From: Minisyncoccota bacterium
Lineage (GTDB): Bacteria; Patescibacteriota; Minisyncoccia; Phycocordibacterales; PALSA-1337
Length of the DNA stretch: 64,000 nt
Assembly: GCA_041665325.1 (NCBI GenBank)
Contig: JBAYJB010000001.1
Location: 162,817 to 226,816 of the forward strand
Direction of reading: 5' to 3'
The position numbers and the translations under genes are program-made. Under the pieces are notes generated by a model that worked only from the letters and a program-made list of their open reading frames with translations, made no database searches and was not told the DNA's origin. How positions within the stretch are numbered: the stretch's first letter is position 1; each line of letters starts with the position of its first letter. Shown in pieces: positions 25,650 through 46,247 of this stretch.

Positions 25650-27464
25650 TCATTTTTTAGCTGTCTTCAGCCACCTCCGATACTTCGCATCCATATCCTC
25701 GAAACTTTTGCTGTTATCAGCGATCTTCAGCTTACCGTGGACCATAGTGATGCGCCCGTTTAGATCAACGGGTTTTGAATGGATCGGCACTTTCTTAAGC
25801 CGTTCGATCCTTGCCTTAGCTTCAGTCAGAATGTCCTTGGTCGATCTTGTGACATTCCTGATGAATGCTTCCGGACTCAAAACCTTCCCCGTCGCCATTT
25901 TGATATTCCTCCCTGTCGGATAGAGCGAGCCATATGACCAGGCCTTGGCTATTTCCTTGCCAACCCTAGAATTGTCCACTATATACCCATATTTTTTGAA
26001 GAAATATTCACGCCACTGATGGACGCCGAGCTCAGCCAGACCGTACCCATGATAGTAAGCAGAAGTCTCCCATGAATAGATATGTGGAATGTTGAGCAAT
26101 CTGATCGAGTCCTCTGAATAATCAAAATATTTCTTATAGACTCTCTTGGCTATCTCCAACACCTTCTTGGCAGTGAGCGCTTTGCACTCATATATCTCCT
26201 TCTCGTACATGACGACGGCGATTATGTTCATCAAGCCAAGTGGACGCAGGGTCTCGAGCGCACGAACCTTACGTTCGAAGAGCTCGAAGGGATATACCCT
26301 GTCCTCAGAGTCCTTGGCGTAGCGCATGCACCATTCGATGCTCGAGGAGATCGTATCCATGAACATGCTCTGCGTCTCGGCCCAGGAGACACTACCTGGC
26401 GGATATTCAGTATTGATACAGACTTCTCTTTGCTTCGAATTCAATCTATCCGCCGCATGGCCGCCTTCGTGGAAAACCGTATGGATACCCTGTACGCCGG
26501 AGCCCATCTGGTCAGCGATGGCATTCGAGGAAAAATTCGCTGCAGCTGGCACCCTTTTGCCACTTTTGAAATGAACAAGATCAGGATAATGGCAAAAGCC
26601 GTTGTTGTATTTACCTTTCCTGTCGAGGAGGTCTAGCGTCACCTTACCTCCGGCAAATCCCACGCCAAGCGCAGCAAATGACCGTCCCCAATATGAGAGC
26701 ACATTTTCGAATCGGAAATACGGATCCTCCTCTTTGGTGAAGCTGCCTGCCATCATGTAAGCAAAGTTCCAAGGCTTGCGTAGGCTGTGCTTGGACTTCT
26801 CAATCTTGCGGATATCCGCAAAAGCGTATTTTGTCCTCTTGTATATCTTATCAAATACCGAGAAGAGCTCCCTCTTGGTCATACCCTCGTCGATGTAGGC
26901 TTTGTAAGCGTAGAAGTCCTCGTATCCGGCCTCGCGAGCAAACTGGTTACGTAATTTGACCGTCTCAACATAGTCTTCGAGCGTGGCGACGGGCAACTTC
27001 TCCATGGCCTCGAAACAGGCCTTGCGGATCTTCTCGTCTGGGTGTGTGCGCAGAAGAGTGCGCATCTTATTTACCGATGCCTCCATGAACTTCTTGGTCT
27101 TCGGATCGATGTAGCCCTCCGGACGCGAGGTACGCTGCTTCATCATCTTGGCTTCCAGATCATTGATCTTCTCCTTGATAGGCAAAGTGCTCGTCGGCGC
27201 CTGGTACAAGCTGAAGAAATGGTCCCAAATCTTGAGGCGCTCTCTGATTGCACCCCTCGTTGCTCCGATCTCTTTTACAACTTTATCTTTGAGCTTTGGG
27301 TCAGAACGGAAAGCGTCTCGAGCGGCTTGCGCCTTGTTCATCTTGGCATCGACGCTGTGATCGCCCATGTACGAGAGCCAGAAAGCATCCTCGTAGGCTT
27401 TGTGAAGCTTGAGATAAGTCTTGTTCAGGTATACAAGTAGATCCACAGCTGATCTGTTATTCAT
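25650..27464 (-). CDS. M3 family oligoendopeptidase (PepF-like; start assumed at internal MNNRS; the ORF-track start is 27542)
   Basis: HEGGHA zinc-binding HExxH followed by a downstream Glu, and overall M3B architecture. About 600 aa. Confidence 0.75.
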
Positions 27465-27557
27465 ATAGCCATGGTACATGCAAAGACAGATTTTGACAAA
27501 ATAAAAATCCGCCCCCATCATCGATGGAAAAGCGGACTGCATGCAGATGAAAAACTC

Positions 27558-27946: not shown

Positions 27947-28540
27947 TCAAATATATTTCTTCAAAATCTCAAAGTCTGCCTTGAGCGTGCCACGCATGCC
28001 GCCATTGTAGAGCGCCGCGGCCGGGTGATAGAGAGTGACGATCGCGATGGGCCCGTAAGATGCCTTGGCCTGGAATTCCCGTCCATGGAGTTTACTGATT
28101 GGCGCCAATTCTTGGCCGAGACCAAAATGATTCATGACATAGCCCATCGAGTGACGCCCAAGCGTAGCAATGACTTTCGGCTGGATGATGTCGATCTGTC
28201 TATTCAGGAATGGCGCGTACATCTCAATTTCCTCCGGCGTCGGGTCGCGGTTCTCCGGCGGGCGATCTTTAACGATGTTGGCGATGTAGACATCCTCCCT
28301 CTTCAAACCGATTGATCCCACTAGCTCGGTCAAGAATTTACCGGCCGCTCCGCAAAAGGGTTTTCCGGTCAGAGCTTCATTCTTGCCTGGGGCTTCCCCG
28401 ACGAACATGATGTAGGTGTCTAAATCCCCTTCCCCCACAACAGGAAGATAATGATTGCTCGTGCGATATCCAAATAGCGGCGACTTCTTGAAGGCGAGAA
28501 GCTCGTCGCTGATCTGCTTCATCTGGTCGGATTTACTCAA
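27947..28540 (-). CDS. Uracil-DNA glycosylase, family 4
   Basis: GEAPG motif (FVGEAPGKNEALTGKPFCGAAGKFL) and the C-terminal HPAA/HPS motif region (LYHPAAALYNG). 197 aa. Confidence 0.8.
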   Translation of the reverse strand: MSKSDQMKQISDELLAFKKSPLFGYRTSNHYLPVVGEGDLDTYIMFVGEAPGKNEALTGKPFCGAAGKFLTELVGSIGLKREDVYIANIVKDRPPENRDPTPEEIEMYAPFLNRQIDIIQPKVIATLGRHSMGYVMNHFGLGQELAPISKLHGREFQAKASYGPIAIVTLYHPAAALYNGGMRGTLKADFEILKKYI

Positions 28541-28551
28541 GGGCGTGATGC

Positions 28552-28920
28552 TTATTTGCCAGCGCGATGCCTCTTCTTGATCTCCTTGTATTTCTTCGAG
28601 CCCAGTTGTCCATCAACCGAACCCACGGGATATTTCTTGGCTGCCAGAGCGAGCTTTTGCCGGATGATCTCTTTGATATCGCAATCCAACAGGATAGACA
28701 TCTCCACGCAATAGATCAGGATATCCGCCAACTCTTTCTTAATCTCTTCTTTGATCAACGGGTCCTTCTCGACTTCTTCATTGAAAAAATTGCTCCACTG
28801 AAAATGCTCTAGGAGCTCGGCGGCTTCGATCACGATCGACTTGGCCACATCGCCCGGCGGCTGGCTATCCCAGCGGCGTTCCTTCATGAAATCCAAAACC
28901 TCTTTCTTTATATCTTCCAT
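28552..28920 (-). CDS. MazG-like all-alpha nucleotide pyrophosphohydrolase
   Basis: 122 aa. EAAELLEHFQW...EEIKKELADILIYCVEM is a typical MazG/NTP-PPase EExxE..D metal-binding helix pattern. Confidence 0.55.
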   Translation of the reverse strand: MEDIKKEVLDFMKERRWDSQPPGDVAKSIVIEAAELLEHFQWSNFFNEEVEKDPLIKEEIKKELADILIYCVEMSILLDCDIKEIIRQKLALAAKKYPVGSVDGQLGSKKYKEIKKRHRAGK

Positions 28921-28931
28921 ATAGTTATCTT

Positions 28932-29813
28932 CTACTTCATCTGCTCTACCACCATCTGCGCTTCCGTCAGGACTTGCTCGGCTTGTTCTCCCCTCACCCC
29001 GATCTCCTTAAGGATGCCCGGCTGGCCGACGACATCGATGCAAGTGAGGATATTCCGCCCGATGATGTCCTGCTTCTGTTGTCTGGTGAGTGTCGAGAGA
29101 CAGGTCACCGGATGCAGGCCGTTGTCCTCGATGATCTCGTGGAGATTGCCCTTGTTGGGATAGTTCCATCCGATCATGTTGATATTGTTGCACTCGCCGT
29201 ACTTCACAGCCACATCAGTGAATTTGGTATTGGTGACTAGCCAGCGCCCTTTGGAAGAGAGCTTGCGCGGCTGGCCGCCGAAGTCGAAGACGGTCTCGGA
29301 GAGGTCGTCAAAGCGGGACTTCACATAGAGGACCACCTTGAGATCAGACTTGAGGCCGAATTCGTTGTGGAACTTGGCCTCGACCATCGAGAGCTCTTCA
29401 CCCTTCCAGGCGACCACATCCATCTCATGCTCCACGCATGTACCGAGGAGCATCTGGTCGGTCAGCGTCTCATACCCCCAAAGCCGGAAGATACGCGCCA
29501 CGAAACGCTCGAATGGAAATCCGTCCGGTCCGAGGTCGAAGAGGGCCCGGCGGACGGAGTATCTGATCGCCGTCTTGTGGTGGTGCTGTTCGCGCAAGAG
29601 GTCAAAAGCTTGGTTGTAGATGTCAGCCGTGGTCATACCATCGCGCATTCCTCCCACTACCTCGCCCACGATCGCCTCGATGACATCAGGCTTGGTGCCG
29701 ACGCGCTTCAATGAATTGACCAATTTACTCTCGTCAAAGAGCTCCTTGGTGCCGTTGGATTTCAGGATGGAGATTGGGTTAGACATAGGGAGATTATACC
29801 CTGAAAAGACCAT
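28932..29813 (-). CDS. ATP-cone domain fused to a restriction-endonuclease-like (Mrr-cat type) domain
   Basis: N-terminus ILKSNGTKELFDESKLVNSLKRVG resembles the NrdR/NrdA ATP-cone. Central WGYETLTDQMLLGTCVEHEMDVVAWKGEELSMVEAKFHNE matches the PD-(D/E)xK Mrr-like core (D..E.K pattern). Confidence 0.55.
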   Translation of the reverse strand: MVFSGYNLPMSNPISILKSNGTKELFDESKLVNSLKRVGTKPDVIEAIVGEVVGGMRDGMTTADIYNQAFDLLREQHHHKTAIRYSVRRALFDLGPDGFPFERFVARIFRLWGYETLTDQMLLGTCVEHEMDVVAWKGEELSMVEAKFHNEFGLKSDLKVVLYVKSRFDDLSETVFDFGGQPRKLSSKGRWLVTNTKFTDVAVKYGECNNINMIGWNYPNKGNLHEIIEDNGLHPVTCLSTLTRQQKQDIIGRNILTCIDVVGQPGILKEIGVRGEQAEQVLTEAQMVVEQMK

Positions 29814-29825
29814 GAATGAGAATCA

Positions 29826-30893
29826 TCATTGGATAATCCCACCACCGAGACATTCATCGCCGCGATATATGACAAGCGATTGCCCCGGGGTCAAGGTATT
29901 CTGTGGGATGGCGAATTTTACGAAAATTTCGTCAAATCCACCACCCATGATGACGGAGACATCTTCGAGTGCCTGGCGGTAACGGCTGCGGGCTTGAAGC
30001 TTTTCGCCCGCCAGGGGCGGTGCGGAAACCCAACTGACCCTCCCCAAACTCACTTCCTGCCTGGAACTCTGCAAAACGCCCGCGCGTGACTCATTCGAAA
30101 CAGTCAGAGTATTGTTCCCGACATCCTTTGATACAACGAAGTATGGCGCATCATTCGGCGTCTTTTTGGTGACGGTGAATCCGTGTCGCTCGCCAATCGT
30201 AAAAAGCAATGCTCCGGGATGATTCCCGATGACTTCCCCAGACTCATTCAAGACATCCCCATTCCCTGTCTCGATATAATGCGAAAGGAACTCCTTCACA
30301 TCTAGTTTTCCAATAAAGCATAATCCCTGACTGTCTTTCTTCTCGGCGTTAGGCAGTTTGAATTTCTTCGCGAGAGCGCGCACCTCCGGCTTAGCCATGC
30401 CGCCAACCGGGAATAGGACGTGATCCAGATCGGCCTGCTTCAATGTCCACAAAAAATACGACTGATCCTTATTCGTGTCCTTGGAAACAAATAAACGCCC
30501 GTCTTTATTCTGCGCATAATGACCAGTGGCGATGAAATCAGCCCCCTGCCCTTCCGCCCATTTCCAAAAAGCACCGAACTTGACCTCACGGTTGCACATC
30601 ACATCGGGGTTCGGCGTGCGGCCAGCTGCGTATTCCGCGATCATATAGTCGATGACGCCTTCCTTATACTCCTTCTCCAGATTCAGGGTCATGAATGGAA
30701 TGCCGAGATGCGCCGCCGCACGCATAGCTTCCAGCCGCTCCTCCCGCCAGTTGCAGGCGATCCAATCGGGCTGCCAGACCTGGATGAAAACGCCAATGAC
30801 CTCGTAGCCGGCCCGCTTCAATAAAGCTGCCGAGACGGCGCTATCCACACCACCAGACATGCCCACCATGACTTTCTTGCCTTGACTTTTCAT
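29826..30893 (-). CDS. mnmA: tRNA-specific 2-thiouridylase MnmA (start at MKSQGKK)
   Basis: KVMVGMSGGVDSAVSAALL PP-loop, and Cys motifs CNREVKFGAF ... GLCFIG. 355 aa. Confidence 0.85.
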   Translation of the reverse strand: MKSQGKKVMVGMSGGVDSAVSAALLKRAGYEVIGVFIQVWQPDWIACNWREERLEAMRAAAHLGIPFMTLNLEKEYKEGVIDYMIAEYAAGRTPNPDVMCNREVKFGAFWKWAEGQGADFIATGHYAQNKDGRLFVSKDTNKDQSYFLWTLKQADLDHVLFPVGGMAKPEVRALAKKFKLPNAEKKDSQGLCFIGKLDVKEFLSHYIETGNGDVLNESGEVIGNHPGALLFTIGERHGFTVTKKTPNDAPYFVVSKDVGNNTLTVSNESRAGVLQSSRQEVSLGRVSWVSAPPLAGEKLQARSRYRQALEDVSVIMGGGFDEIFVKFAIPQNTLTPGQSLVIYRGDECLGGGIIQ

Positions 30894-30907
30894 ACCCGAA
30901 AGATAAC

Positions 30908-31018
30908 ATGAGTCCAAACGTTCCCCAAACTCTTATCATGGAAATCATCATCATTCCGGCGATCTGGCTGGTCATGGCTCTCCTGGTCAGCACCGAACCA
31001 GAGCCATCCACCAAGTAA
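30908..31018 (+). CDS. Possible 36-aa hydrophobic peptide (speculative)
   Basis: MSPNVPQTLIMEIIIIPAIWLVMALLVSTEPEPSTK, followed 8 nt later by a strong + strand terminator. Confidence 0.25.
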   Translation: MSPNVPQTLIMEIIIIPAIWLVMALLVSTEPEPSTK

Positions 31019-32013: not shown

Positions 32014-33285
32014 TTAGATCGGCAGATTGGTCGGCGCTTCGGATTTCTTGGAAGTGACGCGAGCTAGGCCAGGAGTCGAAGAGACCGAACCCGGGAAGTG
32101 GAAGATCGTCGCCAACTCCTCCGTGTTCAAGACCAGAGACGGCGATTTGTACGGCGGATAGAAAGCGGAGCGCCGGCGATAGGCCATGAGGACCTTACGA
32201 GACAGATAGTTGCGACGAAAATCCATGAAATCCTGCCAAGGATAGTCAAATTGAGCCATCCACTTACTGCCGTTCGGCCGGAAGCCGTTCAGATGCTCGG
32301 TATTGAATTGCTTCATGCTGGAAATGAGACCACCGAGGCCGAATGGTGTGTCGAAGGCGCTCCTCTTGGCTAGATAGACAGCCCGGACGCACACATCGAA
32401 TGGCAGCTTGGTCACGCTGCGCTCGATGGCTTTGACTATATCCCGCTCACCCTCGGAGAAAGTAGGCAGGATCGGGAACCCCGCCTCGCTCACCTGCCGC
32501 GAAGCCTTGGTCTTGGGATCGCGGAGCAAGATCTTGTTGACCTCTGCTTCGGCCTCATCCTTCCATCGATCTGTCTTCTTCCAGAGATGTCCGGCCTTCC
32601 TCTGCTCCTTCACATGGGCCCGGATGATGAACTGGAACCAAGCCTGTTCGTTCGGCCGCAGACTGCCCAACCACTCGATGACATGGGTCAGCGGGTCGAC
32701 CTTGAACTCCTCCTTGGGGTCCCGATCGAGCCCGTAGTCTACATAAGTTTTGATCGGATACGGGTCGGGTTTATTGAACTTGAACTCCGCGGCCCAGATC
32801 TTGATCTCCTTTGGGTCAAAATGAACGGAATTGGCATAATCCGCGCGCTCGGTGATCTCGATACCCGGATACTGTGAATAGAGAGCCGACATGAGATTGC
32901 TCTTGCGGCGATCCTCCGTCCAGATCAAGAATTTGACCTGGCCTTCAACGGAGATGAGCTCAAACGAATACCACGGCCTCGTCTCACCCCTCCAGAACTT
33001 GGCGTACGCACTGCCATCGGCCGTATTGTGGATGGATTGGAAGACGGTCTCCATGGCCAGCGGCGACTTGAAGGTATCCTTAGGCAGTTTGAGCTCGAGG
33101 ATAGTGTATTTGATCCCGAGGAATTGTTTGAGCTGGACATATCTGATCCACACATGCCAGAAGATGAACCAGAGACAGATCGCCAGGAGGATCGGCGAGA
33201 GGAAGACGATATAATATTCGGCCGTCGGCAGGAGCGTAGAGCGGAAGCCGCTTCCGAATATATCGACGATGTCCGCAAAAGTCAT
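32014..33285 (-). CDS. Hypothetical membrane-anchored protein (423 aa)
   Basis: N-terminal TM IVFLSPILLAICLWFIFWHVWI, then a large soluble domain with no recognised motif. C-terminal EELATIFHFPG. There is a 1-nt gap to mltG and it lies downstream of the sigma-region-4 protein. Confidence 0.5.
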   Translation of the reverse strand: MTFADIVDIFGSGFRSTLLPTAEYYIVFLSPILLAICLWFIFWHVWIRYVQLKQFLGIKYTILELKLPKDTFKSPLAMETVFQSIHNTADGSAYAKFWRGETRPWYSFELISVEGQVKFLIWTEDRRKSNLMSALYSQYPGIEITERADYANSVHFDPKEIKIWAAEFKFNKPDPYPIKTYVDYGLDRDPKEEFKVDPLTHVIEWLGSLRPNEQAWFQFIIRAHVKEQRKAGHLWKKTDRWKDEAEAEVNKILLRDPKTKASRQVSEAGFPILPTFSEGERDIVKAIERSVTKLPFDVCVRAVYLAKRSAFDTPFGLGGLISSMKQFNTEHLNGFRPNGSKWMAQFDYPWQDFMDFRRNYLSRKVLMAYRRRSAFYPPYKSPSLVLNTEELATIFHFPGSVSSTPGLARVTSKKSEAPTNLPI

Positions 33286-41985: not shown

Positions 41986-42062
41986 TGGTGCACCCTGCAG
42001 GGCTCGAACCTGCGACCTCGCCCGTGTGAAGGGCGCGCTCTAGCCAACTGAGCTAAGGGTGC
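41986..42062 (-). tRNA. tRNA-Val (anticodon CAC), CCA encoded
   Basis: GCACCCT-TA-GCTC-AGTTGGCTA-GAGC-G-CGCCC-TTCACAC-GGGCG-AGGTC-GCAGG-TTCGAGC-CCTGC-AGGGTGC-A-CCA. Cloverleaf with all stems Watson-Crick paired. Confidence 0.8.
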
Positions 42063-42093
42063 ATGAATCTAAAAAAATTTGGGAATTTTCAAA

Positions 42094-42167
42094 TGGTCGG
42101 GCTGCCGGGAATCGAACCCGGACCGCATCCACCCCATGGATGTATACTACCACTATACTACAGCCCG
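42094..42167 (-). tRNA. tRNA-Pro (anticodon GGG), CCA encoded
   Basis: CGGGCTG-TA-GTAT-AGTGGTA-GTAT-A-CATCC-ATGGGGT-GGATG-CGGTC-CGGGT-TCGATTC-CCGGC-AGCCCGA-CCA. Confidence 0.75.
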
Positions 42168-42337
42168 ATCGGCGCGCCGGAGACAAAGCGGCCTGCGTAG
42201 CTTACTTTATTTTTGAGATTTCCTCAAATTGTGCTACATTATCACGGTTCGAGTAGGGCCTATACTCGCTTCGCTCGTTGAGGCCCGTCGCTCGGACGCT
42301 GTGAATGATGAGAACATCATTCACACGATCCTCGCTA

Positions 42338-42408
42338 GGGCCTATAGTAAAATGGTATTACGCGTCCATGGCATGGACGAAGCCCGGGTTCGATTCCCGG
42401 TAGGTCCA
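42338..42408 (+). tRNA. tRNA-Ala (anticodon GGC), no encoded CCA
   Basis: GGGCCTA-TA-GTAA-AATGGTA-TTAC-G-CGTCC-ATGGCAT-GGACG-AAGC-CCGGG-TTCGATT-CCCGG-TAGGTCC-A. The G3:U70 Ala identity pair is present. Confidence 0.75.
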
Positions 42409-42445
42409 CTCAAAGAAACATTATTTTCTATATTCCGAATAAATT

Positions 42446-43870
42446 TTAATTGCTTTTTAAGATAAATCGAATCGAGAATTCGTCGCTCTTTCTAAGTAAT
42501 TTTTCCCCTTGTAATTGTAATTCGGTTACATAATTTGATGAAGAAACCAAACCATCTTTGAAAACCTTAAATCCTAAAACATGGCACTTTGCCTCAGACA
42601 TTGATCGTTTTATTTTATTCTCTAGAGAAAAAGAAGCCATACCAAACGCATCAGTAGATAGACTTTTTATAAGTGAAGGCTGTTGGTGCAAACCCTGATA
42701 ACGCGGGTCTTCAGCCTGAATACAGAAAACATCGATCTTTGACGAAATAATCGCTCTTGAAAGCGAGTCGTTGACTTTTACAGTAATTTTGGAAGGATAG
42801 AGTTGGTTCATATCAGAAATTCCCCTACTCCTAAATCGCATGTCAGAATGATAAAGGTTCTCGTTGATAATATAAATTGAAAGAGGACCAAAAGCCGCTT
42901 TTCGGAAACCATCTTGATAAGTAAGCATTATATCCCTTAGATATTCTTCCGACAAAGAAACGACAGGAATTTTGGGAGAGATGTTGGAATTGTCAATGGC
43001 ATTTGGATAAACATAGTATTCGGGAATGGCAACTCCGTAAGTATGTGCAACCTCATGTGAAAGAGTTTGTACTAGTAATGAATAAAAACCAGAATTAGGG
43101 CTTAGATCATTGCTCGAGTCAGCTAAATGAAGTGACTCATTTCCTAGAAATATTGTTGGTGGGGCACCTTGGACTGTATAGGCACTTGTGATTGCTCCAG
43201 GAATGCCATATACGACCAATGCACCAGGGGTGTAATATTGTGAGTCGGCAATTATATTTGCACATCCATTTACACAAGTATCTGGATTATATGTTTTTAG
43301 ACCAGCAAAAGAAAAAATTTTCTTCGTACCTGAATAAACAAAATTGATCCCATCAACAAAAGAAGAAAGGACTTGTGATAAATCCTTTCGAGTCTCTAGA
43401 TATTTATCAGGCATTACAAAAAGAATTTTCTCGGATTTTGTTTCTACAAAATCTGCAGTAATCCGTGTTCCTGAAACTTTATCTATACCATCTAAATCAA
43501 AAGAGCTCCCGTAAATAGGGATCACTCTATACTCGTATGTGACACCACGCTCCACATCATAATCAATAGCAAAATCACCTCCCGCATTAGAAACGGTTGG
43601 TATATTTTTAAAGGAAGAAAGACTATTACCTTCAACATTTGCTCGAGCGAGCGCATAACTTGAAGGCTTTGGAGTTACAGGATTCCACTCAATATATATC
43701 GCACTACCTAGACCGTTATTCTTAGCAGTAATAGTCAACTGTGCGGGCTGGCAAGATGTACCCCTACATTCATTCCCGTTTTTGTTAAAACTAAATGGCA
43801 GAAGACCTGAAAAAAGAAGAACAAAAAACAATAGGCCAGCCCCGATAACGTAAATATATTCTTTTTTCAT
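42446..43870 (-). CDS. Secreted putative zinc metallopeptidase (HExxH) with an N-terminal FN3-like region; encoded on a strongly AT-rich segment
   Basis: Signal/TM YIYVIGAGLLFFVLLFSGLL. HEVAH motif in LVQTLSHEVAHTYGV. The sequence composition is markedly AT-rich compared with the flanks by eye. It sits immediately 3' of tRNA-Ala. Confidence 0.5.
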   Translation of the reverse strand: MKKEYIYVIGAGLLFFVLLFSGLLPFSFNKNGNECRGTSCQPAQLTITAKNNGLGSAIYIEWNPVTPKPSSYALARANVEGNSLSSFKNIPTVSNAGGDFAIDYDVERGVTYEYRVIPIYGSSFDLDGIDKVSGTRITADFVETKSEKILFVMPDKYLETRKDLSQVLSSFVDGINFVYSGTKKIFSFAGLKTYNPDTCVNGCANIIADSQYYTPGALVVYGIPGAITSAYTVQGAPPTIFLGNESLHLADSSNDLSPNSGFYSLLVQTLSHEVAHTYGVAIPEYYVYPNAIDNSNISPKIPVVSLSEEYLRDIMLTYQDGFRKAAFGPLSIYIINENLYHSDMRFRSRGISDMNQLYPSKITVKVNDSLSRAIISSKIDVFCIQAEDPRYQGLHQQPSLIKSLSTDAFGMASFSLENKIKRSMSEAKCHVLGFKVFKDGLVSSSNYVTELQLQGEKLLRKSDEFSIRFILKSN

Positions 43871-43927
43871 ATAATGGCACTATTATACAACTCTTTAAAG
43901 CAAATGATATAATGACACCATAAAACA

Positions 43928-44515
43928 ATGATGACTGATTTCATCTTGGGAGCGACGGCCGCGGTCATAGCTTACGAGCTGTATTTATATCAGGGGGCTT
44001 CATCATCCATATCGATTTGGGGCGCGACTTTTGTCTTGATCTCATTGTCAGCGTTGTTGGGGGGTATCTATCACGGCGCACGGCATATCGCCGGAGAAAG
44101 ATTCAACCGCTACACATGGAAGGCAGTCCTCTACGCCTTAGCCGGAGCGAGCTTCCTGTTCCTGTGCGCCGCATCATTCACTGTTCCGGTTGCTACTGTG
44201 AAAATTGCTCTCATCATCTTCGCGGCCATCAAATTGCTCATCTCCATCGGAGCGATCTATTCTTCCGACAGATTCCGTATGGTGATGTATGACTATCTGA
44301 TCTCTATGGTGATAACGGCTGTGCTCTATAGCCTATTTATGCCGCCACATGCGACGCTCTGGTTCGCCACTGGGATGATCATGTCTCTCATCGCATCGGC
44401 GATCCAACTCCGGAAGATCGCCCCCAAGCGCTATCTCGATCACAATGACATATATCACCTTCTCCAAGCCCTGGCGCTCATCATGATGTACAAGGGCATC
44501 ATAGCCGCGCTCTGA
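43928..44515 (+). CDS. Hypothetical polytopic membrane protein (about 6 TM)
   Basis: 195 aa, hydrophobic throughout, with no recognised motif. Confidence 0.5.
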   Translation: MMTDFILGATAAVIAYELYLYQGASSSISIWGATFVLISLSALLGGIYHGARHIAGERFNRYTWKAVLYALAGASFLFLCAASFTVPVATVKIALIIFAAIKLLISIGAIYSSDRFRMVMYDYLISMVITAVLYSLFMPPHATLWFATGMIMSLIASAIQLRKIAPKRYLDHNDIYHLLQALALIMMYKGIIAAL

Positions 44516-45628: not shown

Positions 45629-45699
45629 CGGGGCGTAGTATAGTGGTAGTATACACGCTTCGGGTGCGTGAGGTCCGAGTTCGATTCTCGGCGCCCCGA
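45629..45699 (+). tRNA. tRNA-Pro (anticodon CGG), no encoded CCA
   Basis: CGGGGCG-TA-GTAT-AGTGGTA-GTAT-A-CACGC-TTCGGGT-GCGTG-AGGT-CCGAG-TTCGATT-CTCGG-CGCCCCG-A. Confidence 0.75.
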
Positions 45700-45730
45700 C
45701 AAGTATGGTTTAGTCATTCGCTCCTCGCTA

Positions 45731-45801
45731 GGGCCCGTAGTAAAGTGGTATTACGCGGCATTCGCATTGCCGAAGCGGGAGTCCGATTCTCCCCGGGTCC
45801 A
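45731..45801 (+). tRNA. tRNA-Ala (anticodon CGC), no encoded CCA
   Basis: GGGCCCG-TA-GTAA-AGTGGTA-TTAC-G-CGGCA-TTCGCAT-TGCCG-AAGC-GGGAG-TCCGATT-CTCCC-CGGGTCC-A. G3:U70 present. Confidence 0.75.
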
Positions 45802-45811
45802 CAAAGTAAAA

Positions 45812-45845
45812 GGCCGGACTTTGTGGGTCCGGCCTCGAGGGGATT
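45812..45845 (-). terminator. Rho-independent terminator for the small gene 45845..46096
   Basis: Minus-strand GGCCGGAC-ccacaaa-GTCCGGCC followed by TTTTACTTTG. Confidence 0.4.
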
Positions 45846-46096
45846 CAGGCTACATGCAGCTCTTTCTCAAGCTGACTCTTGAAGGCTTTAGCTTGGTCCA
45901 TGGCCTTGGCCGATTCCGAGAATTCGACCAGGAGACATTCAAGGACCATCAATTTCTCCCTGTCTTCGATCATATGAAGATCTTGCAGGGACTTTGCCAA
46001 ATTTTCCTCAAGAGTGCCTAGAACTTGCTCTAGGAACTTCATCCTAGATTCCAGATGAGAAAGCCTCTGGATTAAAAGCTTCTTTCTAAGGTTCAT
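45845..46096 (-). CDS. Small hypothetical coiled-coil protein (83 aa) between tRNA genes
   Basis: Predicted helical, lower GC than its surroundings, and an own terminator. Confidence 0.4.
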   Translation of the reverse strand: MNLRKKLLIQRLSHLESRMKFLEQVLGTLEENLAKSLQDLHMIEDREKLMVLECLLVEFSESAKAMDQAKAFKSQLEKELHVA

Positions 46097-46173
46097 ATGA
46101 AGATATTATACTACCTTATAACCTATTTGTCAAGGAGCTGAAAACCTCATTTTGCTGTATCCTTTGTGACACT

Positions 46174-46246
46174 GGGCCTGTAGCTCACCTGGTAGAGCGC
46201 CTCATTTGCAATGAGGAGGTAAGCGGTTCGAGTCCGCTCAGGTCCA
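46174..46246 (+). tRNA. tRNA-Ala (anticodon UGC), no encoded CCA
   Basis: GGGCCTG-TA-GCTC-ACCTGGTA-GAGC-G-CCTCA-TTTGCAA-TGAGG-AGGTA-AGCGG-TTCGAGT-CCGCT-CAGGTCC-A. G3:U70 present. Confidence 0.8.
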
Positions 46247-46247
46247 C

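Follow-up and report, generated by a model that had tools for sequence, protein, structure and literature searches.

Gene content and layout

The window (the whole 64,000-nucleotide stretch of DNA analysed) holds, at this locus, four co-oriented minus-strand ORFs separated by gaps of 11, 11 and 12 nt in the ORF listing. [quoted passage not shown] An earlier note on this DNA had described such a closely spaced array, and the ORF listing agrees with it exactly. Its four domain assignments also hold, the nuclease matching PF03477 and AF1548/1Y88, the MazG-like protein PF12643, the glycosylase PF03167/TIGR00758 and MnmA NF001138.

Table 1. Genes, domains and sites of the locus, in window coordinates
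Feature	Position	Strand	Remarks
mnmA (tRNA 2-thiouridine(34) synthase)	29826..30917	-	363 aa; immediately upstream of the nuclease gene
ATP-cone + AF1548-type PD-(D/E)xK nuclease + HhH-like C-terminal domain	28932..29813	-	ORF of 293 aa
MazG-like all-alpha NTP pyrophosphatase (DCTPP1/RS21-C6-like)	28552..28920	-	122 aa
Family-4 uracil-DNA glycosylase (UDG4)	27947..28540	-	197 aa, TTG start
ATP-cone domain, residues 15-90 of the nuclease protein	29544..29771	-	PF03477
PD-(D/E)xK nuclease core, residues ~98-215	29169..29522	-	E102, E130, D132, E145, K147, R167, D170, N195
C-terminal helical, HhH-like domain of the nuclease, residues ~235-289	28947..29111	-	
Promoter-like site TTCTCA-18-TATAAT	29793..29822	-	overlaps mnmA end, just upstream of the M10 ATG

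The true start of the nuclease is probably M10 (ATG at 29786), giving a protein of 284 aa, since its homologues are 281-283 aa long, window residues 1-9 are unaligned and residues 1-11 have a pLDDT below 50. A start at M10 would widen the gap to mnmA to 39 nt. The promoter-like site agrees with the consensus at 10 of 12 positions, which is a consensus match and not evidence of function. The start of the glycosylase is also uncertain, its TTG having an alternative ATG at residue 7 (28522). The minus strand shows no terminator-like site from one of the four genes to the next, which makes co-transcription of all four plausible; the nuclease gene is probably co-transcribed with its neighbours.

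MnmA is called by NF001138, which scores 390 bits (cut-off 284), with matches to three Pfam MnmA domains as well. The MazG-like protein matches PF12643 at 43.8 bits (cut-off 27; E = 3.2e-11), and in the PDB it lies close to the 4qgp pyrophosphatase (E = 8.6e-12) and DCTPP1 (2.7e-8), with dimeric dUTPases reaching only E ~ 2e-3. It shares its profile and acidic motifs with DCTPP1/RS21-C6-like enzymes: E32xxE35 (ExxE) and E63xxD66 (ExxD) are present, and their motif pattern suggests equivalence to the DCTPP1 metal ligands. Candidate substrates are dCTP, dUTP and modified dNTPs.

The glycosylase is assigned to family 4 by PF03167 (E = 7e-32) and TIGR00758 (191.4 bits against a cut-off of 125.3), and is close to the Sulfolobus tokodaii enzyme 4ZBX (E = 4.5e-49), with which it shares the GEAPG (residues 48-52) and HPA (172-174) motifs. 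In family-4 enzymes four cysteines ligate a [4Fe-4S] cluster, according to Hinks et al. 2002 as cited in PMC5295032. When the window enzyme is aligned to the S. tokodaii protein, the four cysteine columns read F, S, D and Y, and 55 orthologues mostly have L/F, S, D and Y there; D and Y are invariant, and the occasional departures fall in the first two columns. By profile and motifs, then, the protein reads as a family-4 glycosylase whose sequence lacks all four cluster ligands, and we found no description of clusterless family-4 enzymes in the literature.

An ATP-cone joined to an intact nuclease core

The N-terminal part of the central protein matches the ATP-cone profile from position 2 to 84 of 88, at 41 bits (cut-off 25.8; E = 2.9e-10). 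It forms a four-helix cone with a beta-hairpin lid, in which the residues that contact adenine and phosphate are conserved. These ligand residues are NrdR-like when mapped through a family-profile alignment to NrdR, an alignment that is weak alone (E = 0.017); a single-sequence phmmer search of the cone against the PDB matched only designed helical repeats, and NrdR was reached only with the family profile. The likeness to NrdR does not extend to the rest of the protein. NrdR, of about 150 aa, has an N-terminal Zn-ribbon followed by a cone and delivers its output through a repressor module, whereas here the cone is itself N-terminal, there is no Zn-ribbon, and the output domain is a nuclease whose active site is intact; the NCBIfam NrdR model gives no match to the protein.

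Residues 103-289 match the crystal structure of AF1548 from Archaeoglobus fulgidus (PDB 1Y88) at E = 1.9e-29, C-terminal domain included. Two Pfam models fall just below their thresholds, Mrr_cat at 19.4 bits (cut-off 21; E = 1.1e-3) and AF1548-like_C at 20.9 bits (cut-off 23.9). Since AF1548 comes from structural genomics and has no assigned function, the match provides a fold and no function; AF1548 also differs from the window protein in its length of 199 aa and in having no ATP-cone. The alignment places D132, E145 and K147 on D38, E51 and K53 of AF1548, which are its predicted catalytic residues (PMC1821046).

Loss of the catalytic D/E/K triad was one of the outcomes that, according to the earlier note, would count against its proposal, and all three of these residues are present and invariant within an E-D-ExK active site. 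Across 150 representatives sharing 31-46% identity with the window protein, each of the eight core residues listed in Table 1 reaches at least 99% conservation, and none of them varies in A1, A2 and A3. In its architecture the protein joins a cone whose ligand contacts are intact to a nuclease core whose active site is intact. We detected no RNA-binding domain in it, and its closest structural relatives are mostly DNA nucleases. In the ligand-gated PD-(D/E)xK effector nucleases Can2, Card1 and VC1899 (CARF nucleases), and in NucS/EndoMS, the sensor is a CARF domain or the NucS N-terminal domain, where this protein has an ATP-cone.

Family breadth and the conserved gene block

The fusion belongs to a large, widespread family that is catalogued but uncharacterised, and of which the window gene is a new member. 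The family comprises 1,481 clusters at 50% identity, 540 of them at E <= 1e-30, and at least 5,858 protein clusters at 90% identity. Nearly all of the top 150 clusters are about 265-300 aa long and match the profile from end to end, and are therefore the same fusion. The source labels span Patescibacteria, Bacteroidota and a single Nitrososphaera sp. record, and include Taylorbacteria, Nealsonbacteria, Daviesbacteria, Crocinitomicaceae, Cyclobacteriaceae and Flavisolibacter. A search of the literature gave no biochemical characterisation of the fusion or of any other member of the family.

A relative of the nuclease is found in at least 565 Patescibacteria species genomes, and the 80 closest of these share one fixed block, YceG-MnmA-nuclease-UDG4-...-AlaRS. 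Median identity among close relatives is 60.1% for the nuclease, 59.4% for MnmA, 62.9% for AlaRS and 62.8% for UDG4, the 80 loci having been picked by nuclease similarity, which biases the nuclease value upward relative to its neighbours. In its level of conservation the nuclease stands close to AlaRS and MnmA, and in this Paceibacteria-type genome it is a core gene, probably inherited vertically, that sits in a block of housekeeping genes.

Conservation of the gene order, on which the earlier note had staked its proposal, is found for part of the array: MnmA, nuclease and UDG4 keep their order in relatives, whereas the MazG-like gene occupies the nuclease-UDG4 slot in no more than 3-4 of 70 close relatives, the loci with it there being that of the window itself, L011, L066 and, in part, L007. 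It is linked in none of 77 non-redundant distant loci, a single copy in that set lying four genes off and on the other strand. The slot between the nuclease and UDG4 holds genes for NUDIX, HD/YfbR-like 5'-deoxynucleotidase, HAD and MazG-like proteins, together with three recurrent unannotated families for which Pfam and PDB sequence searches returned nothing significant (our guess is that they are nucleoside 2-deoxyribosyltransferase-like). The slot is variable, with many small nucleotide-hygiene genes that can stand in for one another; the MazG-like gene is one of these and only an occasional neighbour of the nuclease. A three-gene functional or uracil-avoidance module, as had been suggested, is not upheld by these data, given the rarity of the MazG-like gene and the restriction of the UDG4 link to the Patescibacteria block. 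We read the locus neither as a system of defence nor as a set of three genes that must occur together.

Candidate roles of the nuclease

The sequence data show the domain architecture, the intact active-site and ligand residues, the breadth of the family and the synteny; how nucleotides might gate the nuclease, what it cuts and what it does in the cell are inferred. On balance, we cautiously favour the view that the central protein is a housekeeping nuclease under the control of adenine nucleotides, with nucleic-acid turnover feeding salvage as its most likely task and DNA repair as a possible one. By analogy with NrdR and ribonucleotide reductases, ATP, dATP or ADP/AMP would occupy the cone and change the oligomeric or conformational state of the protein. 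It is plausible that this change would switch cleavage on or off, tying the cutting of nucleic acid to the nucleotide or energy pool, with the C-terminal HhH-like domain as the putative nucleic-acid-binding part.

The salvage theme comes from the distant loci. A beta-CASP/RMMBL nuclease lies at positions +1 to +3 in 17 of the 77; an archaeal-type AMP/thymidine phosphorylase, in most cases together with a ribose-phosphate diphosphokinase, is found in 11, and Usp is encoded upstream of the nuclease in 10. In Flavobacteria-like relatives the nuclease shares an operon with Usp, the beta-CASP/RMMBL protein, which resembles the RNA-specific aCPSF1, an AMP-phosphorylase-like enzyme and Prs, a context that points to nucleotide-pool-gated nucleic-acid turnover or salvage. 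At a further locus (L087) it follows an R15P-isomerase-like (IF-2B) protein, RuBisCO and a protein that passes the AMP-phosphorylase equivalog cut-off (595 against 535); R15P isomerase, RuBisCO and AMP phosphorylase make up a route of nucleotide salvage known from archaea and CPR (PMC5113843). Neither of the recurrent contexts is seen in about half of the distant loci. Genes for methyltransferases, toxin-antitoxin pairs or mobile elements do not recur near the nuclease in the distant loci, and no nrd/RNR genes stand beside it in the close or distant loci examined. Set against a role in turnover and salvage is the fact that these neighbourhoods belong to other phyla; in the lineage of the window the steadiest neighbours are MnmA and UDG4 and not salvage enzymes.

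A more specific version of this role can be offered tentatively. The family may represent the first ATP-cone-regulated nuclease, a sensor of the energy or nucleotide pool that licenses the degradation of cellular or scavenged nucleic acid for salvage through the AMP-phosphorylase/pentose-bisphosphate route and Prs. It would then serve as a core function in the genome-reduced Patescibacteria, which are said to be unable to make nucleotides de novo, and in Flavobacteria-like bacteria would belong to an operon for energy stress that is linked to Usp.

We are more doubtful that the nuclease is a partner of UDG4 in base-excision or uracil repair, incising at or near abasic sites or other lesions. 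In such a scheme the cone would limit incision to times of dNTP availability, with the MazG-like enzyme and its equivalents cleaning the dNTP pool. Of 53 close relatives, 30 have UDG4 no more than 150 nt downstream of the nuclease, the median gap being 64 nt, and 8 of the 77 distant loci have it nearby; at one locus (L081) a DNA_binding_1 (MGMT-like) gene also stands between the two. The C-terminal domain looks HhH-like, and HhH modules are typical of base-excision repair enzymes. The association is nevertheless confined to one Patescibacteria syntenic block in which MnmA and AlaRS are equally constant, so that it may be mere inherited gene order. Moreover, UDG4 is absent from the flank in 21 of 70 close relatives, unrelated genes are often inserted between it and the nuclease, and no UDG was found near the nuclease in any of the distant loci with a beta-CASP neighbour. 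We also considered that UDG4 might be anchored to the downstream M3-peptidase/AlaRS genes, and dropped the idea because its median gap to the nuclease is far shorter than that to the next backbone gene (568 nt). UDG4 is a frequent neighbour of the nuclease within this lineage; on the favoured reading it and the MazG-like protein each work independently in DNA/dNTP house-cleaning.

An action on RNA or tRNA that is functionally coupled to MnmA, such as breaking down tRNA or rRNA at low ATP, seems unlikely. MnmA is the most persistent neighbour of all, being upstream of the nuclease in 65 of the 68 close relatives in which that side is visible (within 150 nt in 40-44) and likewise in 17 of the 77 distant loci; it is kept in distant CPR loci despite differing genes further upstream, as in the TrmD-MnmA arrangement of L081. 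The pairing of the nuclease with the aCPSF1-like protein and NMP enzymes in Flavobacteria-like operons points the same way. The MnmA adjacency is, however, limited to Patescibacteria and may be plain synteny, and neither the domain content of the protein nor its mostly DNA-cleaving structural relatives speak for RNA as the target.

It is very improbable that the nuclease is an Mrr-like effector of nucleotide-sensing defence or abortive infection, released when a phage perturbs the ATP/dATP pool. The sub-threshold Mrr_cat similarity might suggest such a role, and MazG-like enzymes do occur in conflict systems. Defence genes, however, are typically patchy and fast-evolving, whereas this one, with relatives in at least 565 species genomes, holds a fixed housekeeping position in the closest 80 of them at an identity like that of AlaRS and MnmA. 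PADLOC-DB gave no match for the nuclease or UDG at E <= 0.01, and for the MazG-like protein only a spurious 13.7-bit TniQ hit; among 2.9 million viral contigs no relatives were found with the patterns used. These absent matches, together with the fixed synteny and core-level conservation, make a defence role unlikely and tell against the nucleotide-sensing defence system that the earlier note had entertained. Nor does the protein conform to type IV Mrr enzymes, as its similarity to Mrr_cat is weak, its N-terminus is an ATP-cone, the Pfam scan found no Mrr_N, its synteny is of the housekeeping kind and its distribution is not patchy. It likewise differs from Can2, Card1 and VC1899 in its housekeeping distribution and in having no CRISPR or CBASS context.

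There is very little likelihood of a purely regulatory, NrdR-like role without catalysis, in which the nuclease fold and HhH domain would do no more than bind DNA and the protein would control transcription of neighbouring nucleotide genes in response to ATP/dATP: the cone does have NrdR-like ligand residues, nucleotide-metabolism genes recur nearby and PD-(D/E)xK folds have been recruited elsewhere for DNA binding, but conservation of E102, E130, D132, E145 and K147 at such low overall identity is what would be expected of an active enzyme and not of a binding module that has degenerated.

The locus carries two cautions for annotation, in that fusions of a sensor to a PD-(D/E)xK domain are not defence genes by default and inherited synteny is not the same as a functional module. 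To our knowledge, the only mechanisms worked out for ATP-cones are those by which they regulate ribonucleotide reductases and NrdR. In this family a sensor with NrdR-like ligand contacts sits on an intact nuclease, across thousands of lineages. If nucleotide gating is real, it would represent a new output for the ATP-cone and would tie nucleic-acid cleavage directly to nucleotide or energy status; if true, the coupling of cone and nuclease would also bear on how symbiotic CPR bacteria acquire their nucleotides.

The ATP-cone nuclease and its locus

The ORF listing places four minus-strand genes exactly where the earlier note had put them, separated from mnmA to the UDG gene by 12, 11 and 11 nt, and profile searches confirmed each domain assignment made there; MnmA, for example, scores 390 bits against equivalog NF001138 (cut-off 284). 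No terminator-like hairpin was found between the four genes on the minus strand. Since nuclease homologues are 281-283 aa long, residues 1-9 of the window ORF lie outside their alignments and residues 1-11 are disordered in the AlphaFold model, translation is likely to start at M10 (ATG at 29786), which extends the gap to mnmA to 39 nt. A promoter-like site ends about 7 nt before this probable start codon and, if used, would yield a nearly leaderless nuclease mRNA transcribed independently of mnmA. The annotated UDG start, a TTG, is doubtful, and an in-frame ATG lies six codons further on.

Coordinates of features in the window, the nuclease and related loci (L001-L080, closest relatives; L081 and higher, distant relatives)
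Feature	Position	Strand	Length	Basis or remark
MnmA	29826-30917	minus	363 aa	ORF listing
ATP-cone/nuclease	28932-29813	minus	293 aa	ORF listing
MazG-like	28552-28920	minus	122 aa	ORF listing
UDG	27947-28540	minus	197 aa	ORF listing
Promoter-like TTCTCA-18-TATAAT	29793-29822	minus		just upstream of M10; consensus match only
Cone, beta-hairpin and four helices	nuclease residues 15-98			AlphaFold model
Alpha/beta nuclease core	nuclease residues 101-215			AlphaFold model
C-terminal helical domain	nuclease residues 224-292			AlphaFold model
M32/M3-like protein	25650-27542	minus	630 aa
Protein upstream of YceG	32014-33285	minus	423 aa
tRNA clusters with intervening segment	41986-46247
tRNA cluster Val-Pro-Ala	41986-42409
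tRNA cluster Pro-Ala-Ala	45629-46247
GC drop between tRNA clusters	42001-44000			GC 0.40
Variable-slot examples	L007:6855-8077, L017:6851-8325, L025:6880-8191, L035:5243-7343, L039:7008-8207, L042:4229-5262, L045:1646-3053, L052:6895-9494, L060:6866-8361
Type B operon	L134:5131-13966			also L145, L166, L127, L086, L102, L122
Salvage trio and nuclease	L087:1266-5867			contig labelled Nitrososphaera sp.
ORF between MnmA and nuclease	L081:5584-5994		~85-160 aa	also L155, L139, L154

Elsewhere in the window, two tRNA clusters bracket a low-GC segment encoding a 474-aa protein without a Pfam match, a DUF6962 protein and a fatty-acid desaturase, which may be an acquired island.

The ATP-cone of the nuclease exceeds its Pfam cut-off (PF03477, E=2.9e-10), Mrr_cat and AF1548-like_C score slightly below theirs, and a match to AF1548, whose structure is solved (1Y88), spans residues 103-289 (E=1.9e-29). 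In the AlphaFold model, built with 22 homologues (pLDDT 82.9, pTM 0.71), the core and C-terminal domain together resemble AF1548 (structural score 17.7), the core resembles NucS (10.4), Can2 (10.0), VC1899 (9.2) and Card1 (8.0), and the cone resembles NrdR (8.6) and the RNR ATP-cones (7.4-8.6); to the C-terminal domain we assign the matches to RAD51-paralogue chain 8faz_B, NusA and Pol X (6.4-6.9). The active site is intact: the catalytic triad on which the nuclease claim of the earlier note hung (D132, E145 and K147) is invariant in close relatives, as are E102 and E130, and all five residues are at least 99% conserved among 150 cluster representatives with 31-46% identity to the window protein. 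The triad aligns with D38, E51 and K53, the predicted catalytic residues of AF1548 (PMC1821046).

The nuclease-family profile matches E. coli NrdR at E=0.017, which is weak on its own. The adenine-nucleotide contacts of NrdR, V51, K53, S54, E59, F61, K65, L66, S105, I108 and Y131 (bioRxiv 10.1101/2025.03.28.645925), correspond in the nuclease to I16, K18, S19, E24, F26, K30, L31, T62, I65 and Y85, respectively, and most of these cone residues are highly conserved across the family. We count the NrdR-like ligand contacts as established, and the cone looks competent for nucleotide binding.

Distribution and gene neighbourhoods

The ATP-cone/nuclease fusion is neither rare nor local, and its wide distribution is established. 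When 1.84 billion representatives were searched with a profile, 1,481 clusters (50% identity) matched, 540 of them at E<=1e-30, and nearly all of the top 150 are ~265-300 aa long with an end-to-end match; a word-indexed search at the 90% identity level gave 5,858 clusters or more. The bacterial source names include Taylorbacteria, Nealsonbacteria, Daviesbacteria, Crocinitomicaceae, Cyclobacteriaceae, Flavisolibacter and Bacteroidia, one record bears the label Nitrososphaera sp., and the annotations read 'ATP cone domain-containing protein', 'AF1548-like', 'restriction endonuclease' and 'Holliday junction resolvase-like'. Scanning one genome per species placed relatives in at least 565 genomes, the best 80 of which are all Patescibacteria-type MAGs.

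The 80 closest loci, whose nucleases are 52-69% identical to the window protein, share the backbone hyp423-YceG-MnmA-nuclease-(variable)-UDG4-(M3 peptidase)-AlaRS, so that the MnmA-nuclease-UDG4 order is indeed conserved. MnmA lies upstream of the nuclease in 65 of 68 visible cases (<=150 nt in 44/72; median gap 58 nt) and UDG4 downstream within the flank in 49 of 70 (<=150 nt in 30/53; median gap 64 nt). The proposed conserved trio of nuclease, MazG-like protein and UDG did not hold, as a MazG-like gene occupies the variable slot between nuclease and UDG4 only in the window, L011 and L066, with a fragment in L007. Where UDG4 is non-adjacent, the slot holds NUDIX hydrolases, an HD/YfbR-like 5'-deoxynucleotidase or HAD phosphatases; other occupants are an NTP_transf_6 protein, an ASCH protein, a HicAB-like pair (recognised by eye) and three recurrent unannotated families of ~145, ~160 and ~175-190 aa (N-termini 'MKIYVLGSSHFMKEMV', '..TIVICSSASFYKQV..' and '..HYRYWTPAD..SGPISTGG'), for which no Pfam or PDB sequence match was found. 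Because the slot contents change among small genes, the MazG-like protein is no fixed partner but one of several exchangeable genes at a hot spot rich in nucleotide-hygiene enzymes. It matches PF12643 (E=3.2e-11), A. fulgidus pyrophosphatase 4QGP (8.6e-12) and DCTPP1/RS21-C6 (2.7e-8), as against only ~2e-3 for dimeric dUTPases, and carries both ExxE and ExxD acidic motifs.

By profile the UDG is clearly family 4 (PF03167, E=7e-32; TIGR00758, 191 bits vs 125); its best solved relative is the S. tokodaii UDG (4.5e-49), and the catalytic GEAPG and HPA motifs are retained. All four [4Fe-4S] cysteines are replaced, by F, S, D and Y in the window protein and by L/F, S, D and Y in 55 orthologues from the close loci, where a few sequences deviate at the first two positions. 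The UDG thus appears to be a clusterless family-4 variant typical of the whole lineage, analogous to clusterless MutY (PMC11722440); no description of such a UDG was found in the literature.

Two further proteins of the block can be recorded here: the 630-aa protein has only a weak M32 match, its L081 orthologue being annotated Peptidase_M3 (oligoendopeptidase F-like), and the 423-aa protein, without a Pfam family, is 43-72% identical in 51 relatives within the same syntenic block.

Distant loci were gathered by looking up several members and scanning metagenome contigs with a diverse alignment; after near-duplicate removal 77 remained, whose neighbours were clustered and the clusters annotated. 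Two contexts recur, and roughly half of the loci show neither. Type A is Patescibacteria-like, [YceG]-MnmA-nuclease-[MgtC]-[UDG]-[M3]-AlaRS, with MnmA in 17 of the 77 loci, MgtC and AlaRS in 10 each and UDG in 8. Type B is Flavobacteria-like, [phosphofructokinase]-[D-lactate-dehydrogenase-like]-Usp-nuclease-(84 aa)-beta-CASP/RMMBL nuclease-archaeal-type AMP/thymidine phosphorylase-ribose-phosphate diphosphokinase, followed by a 217-aa and then a 97-aa protein, and often lies near P-type ATPases and PEP synthase (beta-CASP nuclease, 17/77; phosphorylase, 11/77; P-type ATPase, 11/77; Usp, 10/77). In our reading the type B operon may be an energy-stress or dormancy gene set. UDG is never present in type B loci, and a MazG-like gene occurs once among the distant loci, four genes away on the opposite strand. 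On L087 the nuclease directly follows genes for an IF-2B-like protein of the ribose-1,5-bisphosphate isomerase family, RuBisCO large subunit and AMP phosphorylase (595 vs an equivalog cut-off of 535), together the complete trio of the archaeal/CPR nucleotide-salvage pathway (PMC5113843, PMC6389311).

In distant Patescibacteria loci with an ORF between MnmA and nuclease, MgtC is commonly 3' of the nuclease; the L081 ORF has a precomputed PF27154 ORF11_beta match that is absent from our own Pfam scan.

Functional readings of the nuclease

Median identities to the window proteins are 60.1% (nuclease), 59.4% (MnmA), 62.9% (AlaRS) and 62.8% (UDG4), with the caveat that the loci were ranked by nuclease similarity. 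The nuclease keeps a fixed place in the chromosome and is constrained like a housekeeping gene, contrary to the behaviour of defence genes; its vertical, core-gene behaviour in Paceibacteria is established, as is the recurrence beside it of genes for nucleic-acid degradation or nucleotide processing. From its architecture, active site, ligand contacts, distribution, core-gene behaviour and neighbours, we infer a housekeeping nuclease whose activity the cone would gate in response to adenine nucleotides. The cone would act as in NrdR and RNR, where the nucleotide switches the oligomeric state, and the nuclease most probably turns over nucleic acids to supply nucleotide salvage.

The main rival, base-excision repair alongside UDG4, fits the local synteny, the HhH-like C-terminal domain and the similarity to NucS, but leaves the type B operons unexplained. 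A tie to RNA or tRNA through the upstream MnmA is less likely. So too is the defence role raised in the earlier note, given the fixed position and housekeeping-level identity, the lack of any match among PADLOC models and a search of viral contigs in which the patterns applied picked up no relative. A non-catalytic, NrdR-like regulator is likewise less likely for a protein with these catalytic residues.

The nuclease adds a further member to a family that is catalogued but uncharacterised, and our literature search turned up no experiments with the fusion protein. The family is a good biochemical target, since no nuclease driven by an ATP-cone is known to have been characterised. Patescibacteria (CPR genomes) generally lack de novo nucleotide synthesis, and a role in turnover and salvage, if true, would be especially useful to them.
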